From: Candidatus Heimdallarchaeota archaeon
Lineage (GTDB): Archaea; Asgardarchaeota; Heimdallarchaeia; Hodarchaeales; Hodarchaeaceae
DNA: 64,000 nucleotides
Direction of reading: 5' to 3'
Assembly: GCA_011364965.1 (NCBI GenBank)
Contig: RDOB01000007.1
Coordinates: forward strand, 32,001-96,000
Below are positions 326 to 57,985 of the stretch, piece after piece; the first letter of the stretch is position 1; the number at the start of each line of letters is the position of its first letter. Under the pieces are notes generated by a model that worked only from the letters and a program-made list of their open reading frames with translations, searched no databases and was not told the origin of the DNA. The position numbers were made by a program, and so were the translations under genes.

Positions 326-787
326 TTATCGAAGAAATTGCTTCAATTTATAATAGCTAAAAGTAACAATGGCAATGATTGTTAATGCAAGAAATATGGC
401 ACCGAAATACCTTTGCTCTGGATTTAATCCACCACCTATAAATCCAAGCGGAATTAAATCCTCAATGATAATAAAAAATCCGAAAAAAGTAACCAAATAC
501 AAGAGAATATAAATTGATGAGAATGATACTACTTTTTTCAGAGTTGGAATTTGAAATGGATCCCAATCTTCAGCAAGAGTACAGCTTAGTGTAGCTAAAA
601 TAATTACGACTCCAATGATGGTGCCAATAACTCCGATAAAATATTCATTTAAATCCAAATTTAGAAGAATAATTCCCCAAAATACAACTGGTATTTGTGC
701 AAGCAGTGACCATCCTAACGATGCTAGAATTAATCCTTTTCCCTCAATTCGTCTCCAATCAAATTGTACAGCAGTTGTCATATCCAA
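326..787 (-). CDS. hypothetical membrane protein (~4 TM)
   Basis: Four hydrophobic segments; directly downstream of the PDCD5-like gene. Confidence 0.7.
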   Translation of the reverse strand: MDMTTAVQFDWRRIEGKGLILASLGWSLLAQIPVVFWGIILLNLDLNEYFIGVIGTIIGVVIILATLSCTLAEDWDPFQIPTLKKVVSFSSIYILLYLVTFFGFFIIIEDLIPLGFIGGGLNPEQRYFGAIFLALTIIAIVTFSYYKLKQFLR

Positions 788-48879: not shown

Positions 48880-49899
48880 ATGAGTGATTTTCTTTTTGGA
48901 CCTATTGGTGAAAAATTACTGGAATTAATACAAAGCTTTTCTAATCCCGTTTTAGATTTATATTTTGGCATTATTACAACCCTAGGTGATACCCTACCGA
49001 TTCTTATCATAATTATTCTTCTTTATTACACAATTAATAAAGAATTTATAAATAAAGTGATTTATGTACTTATTTTTTCTGCTCATTTGAATACTGTCGC
49101 CAAAATTATCTTTCATAACCCAAGACCGTTTCAATATGATATAAAATACCAAAAAATAACTAACGTGTTCGGTATGGAAACTACGTGGAGTGCTGGGGGA
49201 TATTCTTTTCCCTCAGGACATTCAAACACGCAAGGCGCCTTTTGGGGATATGTTTTTTCCCGCTATAGAACACCAGTATATATAATATTAGGATTCCTCC
49301 TTCTTACCACCATCCCACTTTCTCGAACATATCTTGGAGTTCATTGGCCTAGTGATATACTTATAGGAGTGTTATTTGGATTATTAATAGCTTATTCTTT
49401 CCTATATGCCGAAAAAAGGTATGGTGAGTCTCTCCGCAACCAATCAAATGGAAAAAAGATAATATTAGGTTTTTGCGCAAGTTTTGGATTGTTAATCCTT
49501 GGATTAATTGCATTATTTTTAGGTACAATATTACCATTCAATCAACAGATCTTGATCACTGATCCTTTTGTTTGGGATGAGGCAAATATTGGAACATATC
49601 CTGGAATTCTTGCTGGGTTTATTGCTGGGCAAGTTTTAGAAAAAAAATATGTGGATTTTAAAATCAGAAGAGAAAATAAAAAAATCATTGCTATACGTTC
49701 AATAATTGGTTTAGTCACAGTTATTGTGTTATATTTGGTAGCTGGAAAAATTGAGGATCTTGCTACTGAGTTTTCAGATCAAATTGCTTGGAGTACAACG
49801 ATAGCTAATTATTTCTCATATCTATTGATTGCTTTCTTTTTAGCATTTATAATCCCGTGGATATTTACAAAAATCGAATCTCTTATTTTTTCTGATTAA
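48880..49899 (+). CDS. PAP2-family lipid phosphatase
   Basis: K......PRP, SFPSGH, SRTYLGVHWPSD. Confidence 0.93.
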   Translation: MSDFLFGPIGEKLLELIQSFSNPVLDLYFGIITTLGDTLPILIIIILLYYTINKEFINKVIYVLIFSAHLNTVAKIIFHNPRPFQYDIKYQKITNVFGMETTWSAGGYSFPSGHSNTQGAFWGYVFSRYRTPVYIILGFLLLTTIPLSRTYLGVHWPSDILIGVLFGLLIAYSFLYAEKRYGESLRNQSNGKKIILGFCASFGLLILGLIALFLGTILPFNQQILITDPFVWDEANIGTYPGILAGFIAGQVLEKKYVDFKIRRENKKIIAIRSIIGLVTVIVLYLVAGKIEDLATEFSDQIAWSTTIANYFSYLLIAFFLAFIIPWIFTKIESLIFSD

Positions 49900-50127: not shown

Positions 50128-51378
50128 ATGAATTTAAGCGGAGTTCCTTACCCAATGGACGAAAAAAATTCCTCTAATCAACATGATGAACCCAATAAAG
50201 AACATCCTGTTGAAAAAAGGATTGATGACGACGATCGTTTTGATGAAATGGAGGAATTCGCCCTAAAGGTTCGAGTTGAGCTTGAGGATGCGTTAACAGG
50301 ACGGGATGACTATTTACATCTCCTAGAGGATGTTTATGACCTTTCTGACAAAATGCCTAAAAAATATCGGGATGAATTTCATCGTTTTCGTTTGTTGAGT
50401 GCGGAGAACACTGAAGAAATTCATATGATCTCCTGCTTTTTAAGCAGTGGAAAACCATTATTTGATTACTCTGTGTCAGAAAAAGTGGATCCTGAGAAAT
50501 CTCATGGACTAATATTGAATGCGATTAAAAACTATGTTCGTTATAAGCTAGGTGAATTGTTAGAAATTCTCACATTAGAAACATATTCAATTCACCTGTT
50601 TCTTGCAGAAAAAACATATATAATAAGCATTATTACCTCCAAAAATCTCCCTCGAGATAAAATTGCCCCGCTTGCAATCCAAATGGCTCGAACATTGAAG
50701 TATTATCCTAATGAAACACCTTATACCAATAAAGAATTAAAAGGCGATTTGGATCGTGCAATTAGCGCAACAATTAGTACACTTGTCAAAGAACAACACA
50801 CGCTAAAGATTATCTTAATTGGTGATGGAGCGGTTGGAAAAACTTCAATCAGACGTAGATATCTTGGCGAGGGGTTTAAAGATGATTACCAGATGACCAT
50901 TGGAGCAGATTTAGCAGCAAAAGCTGCACCAACCATTTATGCCGGCGGAAAACAAATCAAATATTTAATTTGGGATCTTGCGGGGCAACCTCGATTCAAT
51001 CACGTCAGAAAAGCTTACTACATGTCTGCAGTTGGCGCCTTGGTTGTTTTTGATATAACTCGACCCGAAAGTTTTCAGAACATAGTAACCTGGATGAACG
51101 AACTATGGAGACATAACGGACGAGGTCCAGTACCATTAGTTGTTTTGGGTAATAAAACGGATTTATGCGAACAAGGTCTCACCTGTGTGCCAGAGGAAAA
51201 AGCTTTTACGTTTATTAGGCGTTTATCAGATCTCTCACATAAATATAAGGGTTTCAAGATTCATTTTCTACCCACAAGCGCAAAGACTGGATTGAATATA
51301 GATAAAGCCTTTGAACTGCTTGGAGAAGCTATTATGGACTTCTTAGGGTCAAGTAAAAACTCAAGAAAACAAATCTAA
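50128..51378 (+). CDS. Rab-like small GTPase fused to an N-terminal longin-like domain
   Basis: GDGAVGKT, YQMTIGAD, WDLAGQ, YY..A.GALVVFDIT, NKTD, TSAK; N-terminal SSGKPLF longin-type pattern. Confidence 0.88.
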   Translation: MNLSGVPYPMDEKNSSNQHDEPNKEHPVEKRIDDDDRFDEMEEFALKVRVELEDALTGRDDYLHLLEDVYDLSDKMPKKYRDEFHRFRLLSAENTEEIHMISCFLSSGKPLFDYSVSEKVDPEKSHGLILNAIKNYVRYKLGELLEILTLETYSIHLFLAEKTYIISIITSKNLPRDKIAPLAIQMARTLKYYPNETPYTNKELKGDLDRAISATISTLVKEQHTLKIILIGDGAVGKTSIRRRYLGEGFKDDYQMTIGADLAAKAAPTIYAGGKQIKYLIWDLAGQPRFNHVRKAYYMSAVGALVVFDITRPESFQNIVTWMNELWRHNGRGPVPLVVLGNKTDLCEQGLTCVPEEKAFTFIRRLSDLSHKYKGFKIHFLPTSAKTGLNIDKAFELLGEAIMDFLGSSKNSRKQI

Positions 51379-51515
51379 TAATCAGATTGATACAGTCCTT
51401 CCTTATTCTGAGGCTTTATTAAGTGAAATTGGGAAGTTTTCCTCAGATAGAATAATCACGTTAATATATGTATTCACAAAAAATACTATGTGAATCCGAA
51501 CATTGGTGCAAAAAA

Positions 51516-52256
51516 ATGGATCGAGATTTTATTTTAGCCCGAGAAGCACAACTAGTCTACTCTAATTCTGCTGCTTCTGGCTTTAACCCTGTAGGAGACT
51601 CATTAGAAAAATGGCAAGGAACATTAACTTATACAACGAATCGTGGGCGTAATATGTTCACATTTGAGATATTCTTACCTGAATATTTTCCTAATGTTCC
51701 TCCTGTTGCTACTGCTATTGGATTTATGGATCATCCCAACATAGATAATGATGGATTTGTGCAATTACGGATTCTAGATAATTGGAGAGCGGAGTTTCAT
51801 CTTTATCAGGTAATTATTGCCTTAAAAAACCTCATGTCTAGAGTTCCTCCAACTCCGAGAGGTCAAACTGCCAAAACAGCAAGAGATGTTGTCTCAAGAA
51901 TTACCCAAGCTCCTCCACAGCAGGAACCAGTACAAGCACGAAGTGAAGCAGAAAGTACGGCTCTTCGAATGGAACTTACTGCTATAAATCAGCAACTTAG
52001 AGAAAAAGAAGAAGAGATTGCCAGATTACGTGCGCGACAAGTAATTCATTCCGAACCTTCTTCTACTAGTCGTCCCCACCTTTCTGCTGTCGAAGAGCTT
52101 GAATCTGAAAAAATTGCAACCTCAGATCTACTAGCTGCACTAGAAGATCGTTATGCTAGCGGAGAAATTTCAATTTTTGAATATTCTAGATTGTATAAAA
52201 AATATTCCAAAGAATTATACGTATTGAAAAAAGAACTTGAGTATCTTGGAAGGTAA
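51516..52256 (+). CDS. vps23: ESCRT-I Vps23/TSG101 homolog (UEV, Pro-rich, coiled coil, steadiness box)
   Basis: E2-like fold lacking the catalytic Cys (HPNIDNDGFVQL); C-terminal LEDRYASGEISIFEY. Confidence 0.88.
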   Translation: MDRDFILAREAQLVYSNSAASGFNPVGDSLEKWQGTLTYTTNRGRNMFTFEIFLPEYFPNVPPVATAIGFMDHPNIDNDGFVQLRILDNWRAEFHLYQVIIALKNLMSRVPPTPRGQTAKTARDVVSRITQAPPQQEPVQARSEAESTALRMELTAINQQLREKEEEIARLRARQVIHSEPSSTSRPHLSAVEELESEKIATSDLLAALEDRYASGEISIFEYSRLYKKYSKELYVLKKELEYLGR

Positions 52257-52262
52257 TATTCA

Positions 52263-52883
52263 ATGAGTTTCCCAGAAAATCTGTCAAAACAATGGACCCT
52301 CGAAGGACAGCTCTATGCCTGCATAGGTACATTAGATTTACTTTCACGTACTTTTGAAAAAGGAGAACTCGACCCGAATATTTTTCATAAACAGCATAAA
52401 AACTTACTTACGAGTATTGTTGCCACTCGTTCAGCTTTATCTGAATATCATTTTGATCTTGACGATTTTATAGAAAAAGAGAATCTACAGCAGCTTTATC
52501 CCCTTGGATTAGAAAAATTACGGAAAACTGAAGGAACCGATGATAATAGTAGAAATCAAATTGATTATTCGCAAATCAAACGCTTACCTGCATTTGCAGC
52601 AGAATTTGTAGCAAATGCGATAGAATTGCTTGATTTACTGAAACTTGAAGCAATTGCCACAGTAGATCGCATTCTTCCATATCTTGATGAATTATTTGCC
52701 ATTTTATCTCAAATATCAGTATATGGAAACTCACATTGGGTAAGTCAAGATATTAATCAATGGATTGAGTGGATGGATAGAAAAAAACCTGGTATTTTAC
52801 TTAAGGAAGATGATCTGAAAAAACTTGAACTTCAAGTTGCAAGATGGCTCTCTGATTTCAGACGTGAATTAAATAATCTTTAA
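52263..52883 (+). CDS. vps28: ESCRT-I Vps28 homolog
   Basis: LYACI.TLD.L...F, AEFVAN.I.LLD.LKL...VDRI.PYL.EL. Confidence 0.9.
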   Translation: MSFPENLSKQWTLEGQLYACIGTLDLLSRTFEKGELDPNIFHKQHKNLLTSIVATRSALSEYHFDLDDFIEKENLQQLYPLGLEKLRKTEGTDDNSRNQIDYSQIKRLPAFAAEFVANAIELLDLLKLEAIATVDRILPYLDELFAILSQISVYGNSHWVSQDINQWIEWMDRKKPGILLKEDDLKKLELQVARWLSDFRRELNNL

Positions 52884-52899: not shown

Positions 52900-54246
52900 C
52901 TAATTAAGTAAGTTTGTTTTTCCAGTTCTAATAAGAAGTTCAGTAATTGCCTCATTAATTTTAGCTAATTCTAATTCAAATTCTTTGATGAGCTCAAAAT
53001 AATCTCGACTAGCAACTTTCTTCCGTCCTTCTTTTAGCTCTTGAAGTGCTCTTTCGTTCGCCAGTTTTCGAATTCTTAGGTCTCGGAGTCTATCATCAAG
53101 AACCCCAGTTACAAAATCTGGTTCTTCTTTCATCTGTGAGCTGGAATCCTTCTTACTCTTCCCATCATTCATTTCTGATTGGAAATTAATAGCGGAGAGA
53201 ATTTTTTCTTGAAAAATTTCGGAAGACCAATCTCGGAATGGTTCATGTACATAAATATCACTCGGACGACCATAATAGGCTAATTGAAGAGCATCAAAAA
53301 TCCGCATGAGGGTTTTATGGTCAGATCTAAGTTCATAATCATGTTTAATCGTAGTGATTTGTAAAGTATCCCTTTTAATGAATCCTGAGGTAGCTTTCTT
53401 TTGAACATCGATCAGATCTTCAGGGGGAAATTCATCGTATATCACGGCTTTTTGTCCAACAATATTCGTTCTTTTCTTTTGAAACATAACAATACGATCT
53501 GTTGTAATTGATAGATCAATGGGTGTTTTTCTAATGCGACCATTATGCAATTCAATCCCTGAAAAGAATCCTATACCCAATTCACCTGGAATGAAGAAAA
53601 AAATGTCGAAGTAACGGCCTAATTCTTTAGCCATCTGGTCAAATTCATCACATTTTGTTTCAAGAAGGTTAATCATTTCATGAATAGGTTCCAGTTTATT
53701 CAAAACGGTCTGATCAAAGCTAGTGACCTGTTTTTGGAATAATGAAATTTGAAGTGACAGATTTCGATGATCAGTGAAGGCCTCCTCCAGTCCCATAACA
53801 CTTCGGTATAATCGTTTAAGCTTAGCTGCGAATTCTAGGAACTCAGTTAGAACAAAGCTTTCAATTTTTTTGGTCTCAAGAAATATCTGATCAATTTCAT
53901 TTCTTGGATTTAGGAATTGTTTCTTGTATTCCTTTAATCGTGTATCAAGATGCCCTGTCCGTTTAAGTGCAAGAACTGGCCGATATCCAACCTGTTTCAA
54001 TGATTTTTTTAATTCAAAAATAACTTCCACAGCTTCAGCTTTCGGTCCATTTTCTATTGGAGAAGGTTCTATTTCACTAGAACCACATGGACATTTAAGT
54101 CCCCTGCCATTAATTTCTAAATGGGACGCACATTTCTGACAGAAGGAAGCTCCGCATCGTACGCACTTCTGGGAATCAGATTGACGAATCATAGAACCGC
54201 AAAAAGAGCAGTAAAGAGATATAATTTCAGTGACCAATCTCATCAT
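52900..54246 (-). CDS. FYVE-like Zn finger, coiled coil, PH-like and steadiness-box-like protein
   Basis: 8-Cys N-terminus; LSITTDRIVMF PH/GRAM-type strand; C-terminal helical hairpin resembling the neighbouring Vps23 tail. Start is probably near 54246, not 54354. Confidence 0.65.
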   Translation of the reverse strand: MMRLVTEIISLYCSFCGSMIRQSDSQKCVRCGASFCQKCASHLEINGRGLKCPCGSSEIEPSPIENGPKAEAVEVIFELKKSLKQVGYRPVLALKRTGHLDTRLKEYKKQFLNPRNEIDQIFLETKKIESFVLTEFLEFAAKLKRLYRSVMGLEEAFTDHRNLSLQISLFQKQVTSFDQTVLNKLEPIHEMINLLETKCDEFDQMAKELGRYFDIFFFIPGELGIGFFSGIELHNGRIRKTPIDLSITTDRIVMFQKKRTNIVGQKAVIYDEFPPEDLIDVQKKATSGFIKRDTLQITTIKHDYELRSDHKTLMRIFDALQLAYYGRPSDIYVHEPFRDWSSEIFQEKILSAINFQSEMNDGKSKKDSSSQMKEEPDFVTGVLDDRLRDLRIRKLANERALQELKEGRKKVASRDYFELIKEFELELAKINEAITELLIRTGKTNLLN

Positions 54247-54520
54247 CACGTGAGTCCCAGTATGAATAATCCTAACTTTGTTATTTTTAAGCATACAAAT
54301 TCTTGTCATGATATGACGAGATACAAATTGGATGAGTAATGTCAGAATTAACAAAAGCTCTATAAAATTAAATGAATTACAGGAAAGCTCCCTTAAGATG
54401 GTTATTTGACTCCAAATTAGAATGAGAACTGATATTAGGTATCGAATTCTAAAGGATTATAAATTCAATCGAATATACTTCGTTTGAGATTTATCTCTAT
54501 TCAATAGGATAGCTTGTAAT

Positions 54521-55237
54521 ATGGGATTACGGAATATTGAAGACAAACTCAGTCGAGAGGCCGAGATGAAACGAAAAGGAGCAGAATTGGCAATTAAATC
54601 CCTAGAAGAGATGAGTAAAAAGGTTCAAAACCTCCATAGAGATTTAGAAAAATTAGAAAATAAATTTGAGGCTGATTTTAAAAAGAATCCAGAACTAGCT
54701 CAACATCTTATGTCTATTAGGGAAGAGCTGGGATTACCTCTATCCATCGGACTCTATGAAGTTGGGCCCAAACCTAGTTTTAAAGATCGGCTGACAGGGA
54801 AGGATGAGTTCCATAATTATCTAGCTCTTCGTATTCTGGAAATAGGTAATAAGCTTAGAACGAAAACTGGAGGAATTGTTAGCGCTTCAGAGTTAATTTT
54901 GCGAATAAATGAAGAAAATAAGGGAATAACAATAGGAATTTCGGATCTCATGAAATCCCTAGACCTTTTGAAGCAAAATGGAATGATCCATTCTATTCGT
55001 GAATATTCAGGATTAAGAGTAATTGAATTTATAGATCCGAATCTTTCAGATGATCACCATAAATTATTAGAAATCGGTGCTCGCTTCCGTGGAGAAATAA
55101 GTTTAACTGATTTGATAAGAGAATCAGGGTGGTCTCTAGAGCGAATAAACCAATCCATCAATAGTTTAATAAACCAGAAAATCGCTGTGAAGTCGGAAAC
55201 CCTTGATGGAATTATTATTTCATTCCCTGGCCTTTAA
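54521..55237 (+). CDS. vps22: ESCRT-II Vps22/36 (EAP30-domain) homolog
   Basis: MGL..I, KKNPE, FHNYLALRILEI....R..TGG, tandem winged helices, FPGL terminus. Confidence 0.9.
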   Translation: MGLRNIEDKLSREAEMKRKGAELAIKSLEEMSKKVQNLHRDLEKLENKFEADFKKNPELAQHLMSIREELGLPLSIGLYEVGPKPSFKDRLTGKDEFHNYLALRILEIGNKLRTKTGGIVSASELILRINEENKGITIGISDLMKSLDLLKQNGMIHSIREYSGLRVIEFIDPNLSDDHHKLLEIGARFRGEISLTDLIRESGWSLERINQSINSLINQKIAVKSETLDGIIISFPGL

Positions 55238-56839: not shown

Positions 56840-57985
56840 ATGAGTTCCCCTTTATTCGAAGCAGCAAAGAAGAATGCAGAAAGAGCATATCAGCTCGATC
56901 AAAGTGGCCAGAGTCATCAAGCAGTTAGATATTATGTTAATGCCGCAGAACAGCTTCAACAGCTAATTAATTTTACTGATGATCCTAATATGAAGAATTT
57001 ATACTTTCAGAAAGCAATGGAGTATATTTTAAGGGTAAAAGAAATACGTGGAATTATTGAACCCTCTGAAAACAAACCTAGATCTTCTAGGGCTCCTCCC
57101 GAAGAATCAGATGAGATTTCAGATGCTATTTCGAGTGTAATTGTAAGAGAAAAACCCAATGTGAGGTGGGAAGATGTTGCAGGAATGGAAGAAGCAAAAC
57201 GTGCCCTTAGGGAAGCAATAATCTTACCAATGACACGTCCTGATTTGTTTAAGGGTTCACGTAAACCTTGGAAGGGTGTATTAATGTTTGGACCACCAGG
57301 TTGTGGAAAAACCTATTTGTGCAAGGCCGTTGCATCAGAAGTAGAATCAACCTTTTTTTCTGTCAGTGCAGCGAATCTTATTAGTAAATGGTTAGGAGAA
57401 TCAGAAAAACTCGTGAATGAGTTATACGAACGAGCAGTTGAAGAAGCTCCTTCAATTATATTTTTCGATGAAATCGATGCGTTAGCAAGTGCAAGGGGAG
57501 GAGCATCGGAAAATGAAGCAATGCGACGGGTTAAAACTCAATTATTGCAAGCTGTAGAAGGTTTTGCAACAGGTGATGAGTTACTAGTCACAGTTGGAGC
57601 CACTAATACACCATGGGATATTGATGCGGCAATGAGACGCAGATTTGAAAGAAGAGTTTACATTACATTACCCACTTCAGAAGCTCGAGAAAAAATGTTT
57701 CAGATTCATACACGAGGAGTCGATCTAGCCTCTGGTGTGAATTTTTCTGAGCTATCTTCCTATACTGCTGGATATACAGCTGCAGATATAGCGTTATTAT
57801 GTCGCGAGGCTTTGATGCGCCCGATTCGAGAACTAGATGCCGAAGGTGCACTCAAAGATTTGAGTGTGCAACCCCGGGCACCAGATATTGACGATTTTCT
57901 TCAAGGAATGGAGCACATTAAACCCTCCGTCTCACCTAAAGAGTTAGCAAGATATGAAGATTGGAGAGACCAGTTTGGAGGATAG
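56840..57985 (+). CDS. vps4: Vps4 AAA ATPase with MIT domain
   Basis: MIT helices, EKPNVRWEDVAG, GPPGCGKT, SKWLGESEK, FFDEID, RRRFERR. Confidence 0.96.
   Translation: MSSPLFEAAKKNAERAYQLDQSGQSHQAVRYYVNAAEQLQQLINFTDDPNMKNLYFQKAMEYILRVKEIRGIIEPSENKPRSSRAPPEESDEISDAISSVIVREKPNVRWEDVAGMEEAKRALREAIILPMTRPDLFKGSRKPWKGVLMFGPPGCGKTYLCKAVASEVESTFFSVSAANLISKWLGESEKLVNELYERAVEEAPSIIFFDEIDALASARGGASENEAMRRVKTQLLQAVEGFATGDELLVTVGATNTPWDIDAAMRRRFERRVYITLPTSEAREKMFQIHTRGVDLASGVNFSELSSYTAGYTAADIALLCREALMRPIRELDAEGALKDLSVQPRAPDIDDFLQGMEHIKPSVSPKELARYEDWRDQFGG

Follow-up and report, generated by a model that had tools for sequence, protein, structure and literature searches.

Hodarchaeales have been proposed as the archaea most closely related to eukaryotes, and the window analysed here (the whole stretch of 64,000 nucleotides) carries an ESCRT cluster of this lineage in which vps28 and vps22 are separated by a gene on the opposite strand. 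The initial annotation regarded its product as a candidate new ESCRT-I-associated membrane adaptor, which raises the question of what this protein is, whether it is new, and to which ESCRT subunits it might dock.

A conserved gene within the ESCRT cluster

The longest frame at the locus (52900-54354, minus strand) begins with TTG and has 484 aa, and a start at 54246 (MMRL...) gives 448 aa. We preferred the latter because it fits the length of the homologous frames, the maximal ORFs being of 443-453 aa in 18 of 20 genus-mates; ATG codons at 54294 and 54309 and the TTG at 54354 may be alternative upstream starts. With 52 homologs (49-71% identity) and many invariant alignment columns, this is a real gene, far beyond what chance would produce. 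The AlphaFold2 model of the 448-aa protein has a mean pLDDT of 78.5, and sequence searches of Pfam and the PDB with the window protein alone returned zinc-finger rows only, all of them sub-threshold.

Features of the locus and of the encoded protein (positions in the window; residues of the 448-aa product).
Feature	Positions	Strand	Remarks
UEV-Vps23 gene	51468..52256	+	UEV/UQ_con and Vps23-type C-terminus; steadiness box at residues 209-260
vps28	52263..52883	+	Ends 16 nt short of the studied gene's stop codon; convergent
Gene for 448-aa Znr_CC_PH_SB-type protein	52900..54246	-	Stop codon 52900-52902
Clade-invariant tail TGKTNLL, residues 441-448	52903..52926	-	G442, K443 and N445 invariant
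Steadiness-box-type helical hairpin, residues 377-441	52924..53118	-	AlphaFold2 and profile alignments
Linker, residues 331-376	53119..53256	-	Conserved EPFRDWSSE-YQEKIL, then a variable low-confidence stretch
PH-fold domain, residues 216-330	53257..53601	-	Seven strands and C-terminal helix, GRAM/GLUE-like
Four long helices ("coiled-coil" region), residues 68-210	53617..54045	-	AlphaFold2 model
Eight-Cys zinc module, residues 13-54	54085..54210	-	B-box1/FYVE/RING-like cross-brace spacing
Spacer, 274 bp	54247..54520	.	Shared with the divergent vps22-snf7-snf7-vps4-vps25 row
vps22 (EAP30)	54521..55237	+	No GLUE domain

The position between vps28 and vps22 noted initially holds at this locus and in genus-mates: the gene was found in 20 genus-mate loci, and in all 19 that extend to both flanks the order vps23-vps28-gene-vps22-snf7 is kept, with the studied gene reversed. 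In four of these 19 loci, viewed more widely, the Ub-E1-Yip1-Rab genes and the ESCRT row as far as vps25 are also kept. As the EAP30 model spans residues 2-221 of the 238 of the window's Vps22, this protein has no GLUE domain, in agreement with the initial annotation. The survey of Asgard ESCRT loci that had been suggested there likewise places the gene in ESCRT neighbourhoods, both in genus-mates and for distant Asgard homologs, which directly adjoin Snf7/Vps4/Vps25/Vps22 genes; in most other Asgard lineages it lies beside ESCRT-III, Vps4, Vps25 or Vps22 genes without ESCRT-I genes nearby. The company conserved across the phylum is thus that of ESCRT-II/III rather than ESCRT-I, and for this reason Vps22 has to be considered as a partner of the C-terminal hairpin as well as Vps23/Vps28.

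Domain architecture of the protein

The translation reads C13-x2-C16-x11-C28-x2-C31-x4-C36-x2-C39-x12-C52-x-C54, exactly the spacing annotated initially, and its four Cys pairs are predicted to hold two zinc ions per module. It resembles the FYVE domain of ESCRT-0 (Vps27/Hrs, EEA1) in its eight Cys and in the core C-x2-C-G-x2-F-C-x2-C, and the family profile matches EEA1 weakly (E 0.0017); however, R(R/K)HHCR, WxxD and RVC, the motifs that give FYVE domains their PI3P binding, are absent from the window protein and from the family alignment, S-Q-K preceding C28 here and (Q/H)-K standing there across the family. The description as FYVE-type spacing without the PI3P patch is therefore accurate. 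Against solved chains, the family profile matched RING domains (RNF4, E 9e-6; TRIM5, E 1e-5; BRCA1, E 1e-4), with FYVE, PHD and B-box chains scoring in the same list. None of the Pfam zinc-finger models reached its own cut-off, zf-B_box and ANCHR-like_BBOX staying just below theirs (best E 1.3e-5, 25.6 bits, cut-off 27).

The long coiled coil and the beta-rich PH/GRAM/GLUE-like region that had been proposed to follow are both recovered in the AlphaFold2 model. The former corresponds to helices at 68-87, 89-105, 115-151 and 160-210, mostly with pLDDT of 86-96 (one 10-residue block at 151-160 is lower, 64), and includes YRPV and FDQTV motifs that are invariant within the Hodarchaeales clade. The latter is a confidently predicted PH fold, with seven strands and a helix at 224-325 and a family-wide motif ITTDRI, which in long forms of the family reads GTLFITNKRL. 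Residues 207-330 superpose on the PH-GRAM domain of MTMR2 (Z 13.3, rmsd 2.7 Å, 110 aligned), on the PH domain of TAPP1 (Z 12.0, many PH domains lying at Z 11-12.6) and on the GLUE domain of EAP45 (Z 11.0, rmsd 2.8 Å, 97 aligned), the last at a Z equalled or exceeded by many PH domains. In the long forms, Pfam gives weak matches to GRAM, bPH_3 and Vps36_ESCRT-II, the latter confined to these forms and below its cut-off (E 0.0011-0.07).

At the C-terminus, AlphaFold2 predicts a hairpin of two helices (377-405 and 413-441), which in Hodarchaeales is divergent, its loop being two residues shorter than in the long forms and the G-x-IS signature lost, and which profile alignment places in register with the long-form hairpins. 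The Hodarchaeales hairpin profile alone has no significant similarity to Vps23 (0.3%, E 0.18), and a Pfam scan of this hairpin gave no match. With the long forms, the picture is as follows: they match the window's Vps23 family at 93.7% (E 1.9e-7); among solved chains, yeast Vps23 (2p22, E 2.5e-4) and TSG101 (6vme, E 2.2e-3) are hit by the C-terminal profile, which also aligns with the N-terminal hairpin of Vps28 at 61% (E 8e-5); Pfam Vps23_core is matched in one long form at its cut-off (E 5.3e-6, 26.8 bits) and by 8 of 22 C-termini, with CdvA also matched by the hairpin. The hairpin profile matches the Vps22 family at 30% (E 5e-4), more weakly than Vps23 or Vps28. Sequence comparison thus supports a hairpin of putative steadiness-box type, whose likeness to Vps23 is seen only through longer relatives. 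The initial annotation aligned the C-terminus by eye with the Vps23 steadiness box; its register agrees with that of the top hhalign alignment, which becomes significant only when distant members are included.

A probable shortened member of a known Asgard family

The same succession of zinc ribbons, coiled coil, PH domain and steadiness box has been described as Znr_CC_PH_SB or Znr_PH_CC_SB (asCOG cog.011556), with three zinc ribbons, and published as a likely ESCRT-I component whose PH domain is expected at the membrane (Makarova et al. 2024, mBio, PMC10936438). The member of Lokiarchaeum GC14_75 has 650 aa and is followed by metE and then by a Vps20 gene (PMC10936438). Several lines of comparison connect the window protein to this family. 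Its long-form relatives have 480-700 aa and three zinc ribbons and are encoded beside ESCRT genes; those of 647-692 aa, the size range of the Lokiarchaeum protein, adjoin a Snf7 gene, and one locus (L058, 647 aa) has a metE-sized gap before the Snf7 gene, as in Lokiarchaeum. When the window protein is included in the profile, long forms are retrieved at E 3e-25 and 5e-15, and hhalign aligns the Hodarchaeales profile with the long-form profile at 99.6% (E 7.4e-24), the 421 aligned columns running from zinc module to hairpin. A protein-language-model search returned the same Asgard clusters (519, 698 and 684 aa).

Of 400 Asgard genomes searched in six frames, 373 had a match to the long-form profile at E <= 1e-5, and in 25 of 33 Asgard families the matches were strong (E < 1e-20); this search is far more sensitive than a word-index search with the long-form alignment, which gave 2 proteins, and apparent internal stops in some long-form matches are the genes' own stop codons. 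Run in six frames on the window's own genome, the long-form profile missed the gene studied here. In the listed neighbourhoods of Heimdall LC_3, one Hodarchaeota genome, no protein is labelled cog.011556; LC_3 does carry a distant homolog, HeimC3_02860.

The putative link to the published family is drawn from shared architecture and size, from synteny, and from homology to forms in the size range of the Lokiarchaeum protein. The window protein has the domain order of Znr_CC_PH_SB, from a zinc module (here in reduced form) through helices and PH fold to a steadiness-box hairpin at the C-terminus; it is homologous to the 480-700-aa forms over its full length, and an ESCRT neighbourhood and the predicted role are likewise shared. 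In contrast to it, the window protein has four Cys pairs instead of six (the 12 Cys of the long relatives form six CxxC pairs, of which the two middle pairs are deleted in the Hodarchaeales form) and hence two predicted zinc sites against three ribbons, is 448 aa long against about 480-700, combines the shorter, G-x-IS-less hairpin with the clade-specific TGKTNLL tail, and has its gene flanked by vps28 and vps22, not adjacent to one for ESCRT-III. The best explanation is that the protein is probably a shortened Hodarchaeales ortholog of Znr_CC_PH_SB, with four of the six Cys pairs, that would act as an upstream ESCRT adaptor. The novelty proposed in the initial annotation is therefore not supported, the same architecture and role being published as cog.011556 and full-length homology being found. 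Since both the family and the idea of a membrane adaptor are already published, the window gives detail and not a discovery; what it adds is the loss of two of six Cys pairs, the hairpin likeness recognised via long relatives, and the ESCRT-II/III company. The family emerges as a predicted ESCRT component that is specific to Asgard archaea, occurs in nearly the whole phylum and is as yet uncharacterised; it may account for the way in which Asgard ESCRT gets to membranes in the absence of Vps36, Vps37 and ESCRT-0.

Proposed adaptor role and candidate docking partners

As an upstream ESCRT adaptor, the protein would dock through its C-terminal steadiness-box-type hairpin onto homologous hairpins of other ESCRT subunits, candidate sites being the Vps23/Vps28 headpiece or the N-terminal helical part of Vps22, and its GRAM/GLUE-like PH domain and zinc module would give contacts to membrane and/or ubiquitin cargo. 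In eukaryotes, such contacts reside in Vps36-GLUE and ESCRT-0.

Two readings would assign the protein a different kind of activity. One takes the zinc module for a RING/B-box-type ubiquitin-ligase or E2-binding domain, so that the protein would ubiquitylate or regulate ESCRT-I instead of serving as an adaptor, and appeals to the RING chains matched by the family profile and to the two B-box models near their cut-off. These scores, however, rest largely on Cys spacing, FYVE, PHD and B-box chains scoring in the same list, no Pfam zinc-finger model reaches its cut-off, and the core C-x2-C-x4-C-x2-C fits B-box1/FYVE better than the RING pattern C-x-H-x2-3-C, which argues against a ligase. Even with the report that, in vitro, a RING E3 attaches ubiquitin to the steadiness box of an Asgard UEV-Vps23 (preprint 10.1101/2023.07.25.550441), we consider a ligase highly improbable. 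Scarcely credible is the other reading, which takes the helical region together with the PH domain for an exchange module of DH-PH type, acting on the Rab-like GTPase whose gene lies upstream. A Rab-like GTPase gene does lie within the cluster, and another beside homologs of one Heimdall family, and DH-PH tandems head the Foldseek list (E about 1e-5), but with TM-scores of 0.17-0.34 and rmsd of about 17-25 Å. In VIA-align, the DH-PH rows have Z 11-12.9 and rmsd 6-19 Å, against Z 12-13.3 and rmsd 2.3-3.5 Å for PH-only rows; since the former score no higher than the latter, the helical part contributes nothing to the match, and on rmsd and Z the DH-PH identity suggested by Foldseek is disfavoured.

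Two further readings keep the adaptor and differ in its partner. That the protein takes the place of Vps37 as third ESCRT-I headpiece subunit, as the initial annotation proposed, joining Vps23 and Vps28 in a 1:1:1 core and contributing lipid binding, we regard as rather unlikely. The gene abuts vps28 and lies near vps23 in Hodarchaeales, and the family hairpin has relatives in the Vps23 steadiness box and the Vps28 N-terminal hairpin. The protein resembles Vps37 (Mod_r) as a non-UEV, non-Vps28 product with a steadiness-box-type hairpin encoded near vps23 and vps28. Counting for the same reading, no Vps37 homolog is reported for Asgard archaea, and an Odinarchaeota Vps23 dimer and one Vps28 fill the trimer (PMC9192718); in family f27 (small genomes of 1.3-1.4 Mb, suggesting Odinarchaeota) Vps28 is present in three of four genomes and the long-form profile matches are weak. 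Against it as an exclusive, ancestral role, the gene elsewhere in the phylum has no ESCRT-I neighbours, and of the 89 genomes in families f31-f33, 87 carry it while only 10 have a Pfam VPS28 match, a count that divergent Vps28 proteins escaping the model may lower. Pfam Mod_r moreover gave no row at E <= 1 in any scan (window protein, long forms, C-termini), and the stalk-plus-headpiece helix that is continuous in Vps37 has no counterpart here, the PH domain and the low-confidence linker 331-376 lying between helices and hairpin (AlphaFold2). A PH domain and a zinc module, both present in the protein, are absent from Vps37. Somewhat unlikely, in our view, is a Vps36-like function in trans, in which the hairpin would sit on the N-terminal helices of Vps22 and the protein would contribute the PH/GLUE and zinc head missing from Asgard ESCRT-II, serving the ESCRT-II/III step, outside ESCRT-I. 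It is favoured by the phylum-wide neighbours Vps22/Vps25/Vps4/Snf7, the 274-bp divergent spacer shared with vps22, the lack of Vps36 in Asgard archaea (PMC9192718), the steadiness-box-like N-terminal part reported for Asgard Vps22 (PMC10936438), the superposition of the PH domain on EAP45 GLUE and the Vps36_ESCRT-II match of one long form (E 0.0011). With Vps36/EAP45, whose GLUE domain carries NZF fingers in yeast, the protein shares a PH fold and zinc fingers in an early ESCRT component; it differs in that its zinc module has the spacing of a B-box/FYVE-like cross-brace, not of NZF, and stands at the N-terminus, whereas in yeast Vps36 the fingers are inserted in the PH domain, and in that it ends in a steadiness-box hairpin and has no winged-helix domains, neither Pfam nor the AlphaFold2 model giving an EAP30 or winged-helix match. 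The hairpin's weaker similarity to Vps22 than to Vps23 or Vps28 also counts against this reading, and gene adjacency is by itself no proof of binding. Because the gene stands beside ESCRT-II/III genes phylum-wide and is common where the VPS28 model finds little, the docking partner of the adaptor may be either the ESCRT-I headpiece or Vps22.

It is distinctly unlikely that the two-zinc variant of Hodarchaeales moved beside vps23/vps28 and became a true third ESCRT-I headpiece subunit with a membrane and cargo head: jobs split in eukaryotes among Vps37, Vps36-GLUE and ESCRT-0 FYVE would then once have been united in one Asgard protein. With its 448 aa and two predicted zinc sites, the Hodarchaeales form is compact and would make a convenient construct for biochemistry.

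Conservation and genomic context within Hodarchaeales

The gene lies on a single long minus-strand ORF (window 52900-54354), encoding the 448-aa protein P0001 when translation starts at 54246, and comparison with genus-mates, whose maximal ORFs are mostly 443-453 aa, supports this start over upstream TTG or ATG codons. A Pfam scan of the neighbours places it in an Asgard ubiquitin-ESCRT cluster, between vps28 and vps22 as initially annotated (see Table). Judging from sequence comparison, it is a real, conserved gene: a word-index search retrieved 52 proteins with 49-71% identity to P0001, all annotated as hypothetical or zinc-ribbon and, where the source is named, mostly from Hodarchaeales or Heimdall-group MAGs, and the alignment of homologs contains about 90 invariant columns. 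A profile search of genomes identified the gene in 20 of the 21 species of the genus (E < 1e-148), and all 19 genus-mate loci reaching both sides share the order vps23-vps28-gene (inverted)-vps22-snf7; four of them, examined over a longer stretch, likewise retain Ub-E1-Yip1-Rab upstream and the ESCRT genes as far as vps25. Of these four, only L041 shares the window's PAP2-like gene; L042, L043 and L044 lack it at the corresponding position. The Rab-like GTPase gene just upstream of vps23 (window 50128-51378, plus strand), whose product has about 215 additional residues at its N-terminus, is kept across the genus.

Table. Genes of the cluster (window coordinates) and predicted regions of P0001 (residues)
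Feature	Position	Strand	Basis or remark
Ubiquitin, E1-like protein, Yip1, Rab-like GTPase	vps23 side of cluster		Pfam
PAP2-like membrane protein gene (putative label)	48880-49899	+	between yip1 and Rab-like GTPase gene
UEV/UQ_con protein with Vps23-type tail	51468-52256		Pfam
VPS28	52263-52883		Pfam
Gene under study	52900-54246	-	strand opposite to cluster neighbours
EAP30/Vps22	54521-55237		Pfam
Two Snf7 genes and Vps25	vps22 side of cluster		Pfam
Vps4 homolog	56840-57985		AAA-ATPase sequence and conserved cluster place
Zinc module, small, strands and helix	residues 10-61		pLDDT 64-74
Four long helices	residues 68-210		pLDDT mostly 86-96
Seven strands and helix	residues 224-325		AlphaFold2 model
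Linker, low confidence	residues 331-376		AlphaFold2 model
Helical hairpin	residues 377-405 and 413-441		AlphaFold2 model

Relationship to the Asgard family Znr_CC_PH_SB

An exhaustive HMMER search returned only 11 cluster representatives, several of them relatives at 21-32% identity and of comparable length, including HeimC3_02860 of Heimdall LC_3. A profile built with these relatives matches proteins in other Asgard families, whose full ORFs are mostly 483-553 aa (one 5'-truncated) with 12 Cys, i.e., six CxxC pairs or three ribbons, and which at 7 of 10 loci directly adjoin Snf7, Vps4, Vps25 or Vps22 genes. The Hodarchaeales profile aligns with these long forms (Asgard relatives of 480-700 aa with six Cys pairs) over 421 columns, which begin at the first Cys pair and extend through the whole C-terminal hairpin (99.6% probability, E 7.4e-24). 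The largest family in the phylum set has homologs of 647-692 aa with three ribbons and a neighbouring Snf7 gene, and the nearest neighbours in a protein-language-model search are Asgard clusters of 519, 698 and 684 aa.

Makarova et al. 2024 (mBio, PMC10936438) described an Asgard-specific protein, Znr_CC_PH_SB (cog.011556), as "a likely ESCRT-I component" whose PH domain is "expected to be membrane associated", by analogy with Vps36. The members tabulated there include one of 650 aa in Lokiarchaeum GC14_75, followed by metE and then a Vps20 gene; the 647-aa homolog at locus L058 shows the same arrangement, with a metE-sized gap before its Snf7 gene. Through this chain of profile, size and synteny, rather than through the asCOG member list, P0001 is very probably a member of cog.011556. 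The initial annotation had proposed a new kind of protein; its observation is confirmed and its domain interpretation right, but both family and hypothesis had already been published (PMC10936438). Our additions are modest: a shortened Hodarchaeales variant with two predicted zinc sites, as opposed to three ribbons, a divergent hairpin and a near-invariant TGKTNLL tail; the constant location of the gene between vps28 and vps22 within the genus; and a phyletic distribution and synteny pointing at least as strongly to ESCRT-II/III as to ESCRT-I.

In Heimdall LC_3, three separate contigs carry the ubiquitin genes, the Vps28/Vps23 pair and the row of ESCRT-II/III and Vps4 genes (supplement table, PMC10936438), so the single compact cluster of the window is not the rule for that paper's "Hodarchaeota"; the same table does not list HeimC3_02860, the distant LC_3 homolog, as a flagged neighbour. 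As a lead only, a bacterial (Chloroflexota) cluster of 572-aa proteins is a weak look-alike in the protein-language-model search (score 0.80, rank 4), with Pfam GRAM in 68% of its members and Vps36_ESCRT-II in 51%.

Predicted domain architecture

The AlphaFold2 model of P0001, built from a 14-sequence alignment, has a mean pLDDT of 78.5 and agrees with the coiled coil and subsequent beta-rich PH/GRAM/GLUE-like region proposed initially. Residues 207-330 are firmly predicted to adopt the PH superfold: in an all-against-representatives structural search (VIA-align), they match MTMR2 PH-GRAM (Z 13.3, rmsd 2.7 A, 110 aligned), a Leishmania PH domain (Z 12.6), TAPP1 PH (Z 12.0) and EAP45 GLUE (Z 11.0, rmsd 2.8 A, 97 aligned). 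DH-PH tandems take the top Foldseek ranks, but a DH reading of the helical region was rejected because of poor superposition (TM 0.17-0.34, rmsd ~17-25 A) and because DH-PH rows score no better than PH-alone rows in VIA-align.

At the N-terminus, the eight-Cys spacing reported earlier, C-x2-C-x11-C-x2-C-x4-C-x2-C-x12-C-x-C, is exact. Its description as FYVE-like without the R(R/K)HHCR PI3P patch is fair: the core KC-x-x-CG-x-x-FC-x-x-C resembles that of FYVE, although every PI3P-binding motif is missing and no basic motif precedes the third Cys. RING, B-box, FYVE and PHD chains all match the family profile (RNF4 9e-6, TRIM5 1e-5, EEA1 1.7e-3), and the nearest Pfam models in long forms are zf-B_box and ANCHR-like_BBOX, "B-box/FYVE-like cross-brace" being a safer label. 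In the family alignment, Cys pairs four and five are gone from the Hodarchaeales form and the last pair has become C-x-C; the remaining pattern reads as a cross-brace finger.

The C-terminal hairpin (residues 377-441) is well supported as a steadiness box at the family level by profile comparison. Vps23_core matches 8 of 22 C-termini, and in one long form its score attains the Pfam threshold (E 5.3e-6); the long-form profile matches the window's Vps23 family (93.7%, E 1.9e-7) and has the Vps23 tail as its top match in the window's own genome; and a C-terminus-only profile places yeast Vps23 (2p22, 2f66, 2caz) and human TSG101 (6vme) within the first ten solved chains. The alignment with Vps23 drawn by eye had the right register, but the Hodarchaeales clade alone, whose hairpin loop is two residues shorter than in long forms, has no significant similarity to Vps23 (0.3%, E 0.18), so that for P0001 the alignment is supported transitively, through the long forms. 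Among solved chains, the hairpin profile scores best against 8whn_A, a 161-aa "Ribophorin 1 superfamily protein" in which two tandem stretches each align to a steadiness-box-type hairpin (E 1.1e-4). A possible Vps23-like paralog lies outside the window in the same genome: a second ORF, of 263 aa (G000:C13:128491-128769), that aligns with the long-form profile at its steadiness-box end (E 4.6e-4). The TGKTNLL tail (residues 441-448, window 52903-52926, minus strand) is nearly invariant in the Hodarchaeales clade (G442, K443 and N445 in all 22 sequences) and absent from long-form relatives, and could be a short docking motif.

Candidate docking partners

The Vps37-like role initially proposed is hypothetical, and another reading fits as well. 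The hairpin may dock into the Vps23/Vps28 headpiece, or onto Vps22, P0001 then supplying a Vps36-like head in trans. Asgard archaea are reported to lack Vps37 and Vps36 (PMC9192718). The Vps22 of the window lacks a GLUE domain, as had been noted, since the EAP30 model occupies residues 2-221 of its 238 aa, and a 274-bp spacer lies between its row and the divergently oriented gene. The C-terminus-only profile aligns to the Vps28 N-terminal hairpin (61%, E 8e-5) and, more weakly, the Vps22 N-terminus (30%, E 5e-4). In work on proteins other than the P0001 family (PMC9192718), Vps23 of Odinarchaeota forms a dimer to which one Vps28 binds, and two-hybrid assays show a stand-alone steadiness-box protein from Lokiarchaeota interacting with both Vps28 and Vps22.

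The long-form profile has matches in 373 of 400 Asgard genomes (E <= 1e-5), strong in 25 of 33 families, and the Pfam VPS28 model in 278 of 400. In families f31-f33, the adaptor is present in 87 of 89 genomes and VPS28 in 10, the ESCRT cluster consisting only of Vps22, Vps25, Vps4, one Snf7 gene and the P0001-family gene, flanked by housekeeping genes; this pattern is suggestive, not proof, because the Pfam model may miss divergent forms of Vps28. In small-genome families with VPS28, matches to the long-form profile are weak and probably zinc-only. Synteny confirms the expected ESCRT linkage, but outside the genus the neighbours are mostly Snf7, Vps4, Vps25 and Vps22 rather than vps28, placement beside which occurs, among the loci examined, only in the window's genus; the phylum-wide conserved company of the gene is ESCRT-II/III. 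These phyletic and synteny data move the choice of partner somewhat, and both docking models are kept. In another Heimdall-class family, the neighbour of the P0001 homolog is not an ESCRT gene but one encoding a 574-aa protein that matches Rab-like GTPases (L035 9944-11668; L028, L029).
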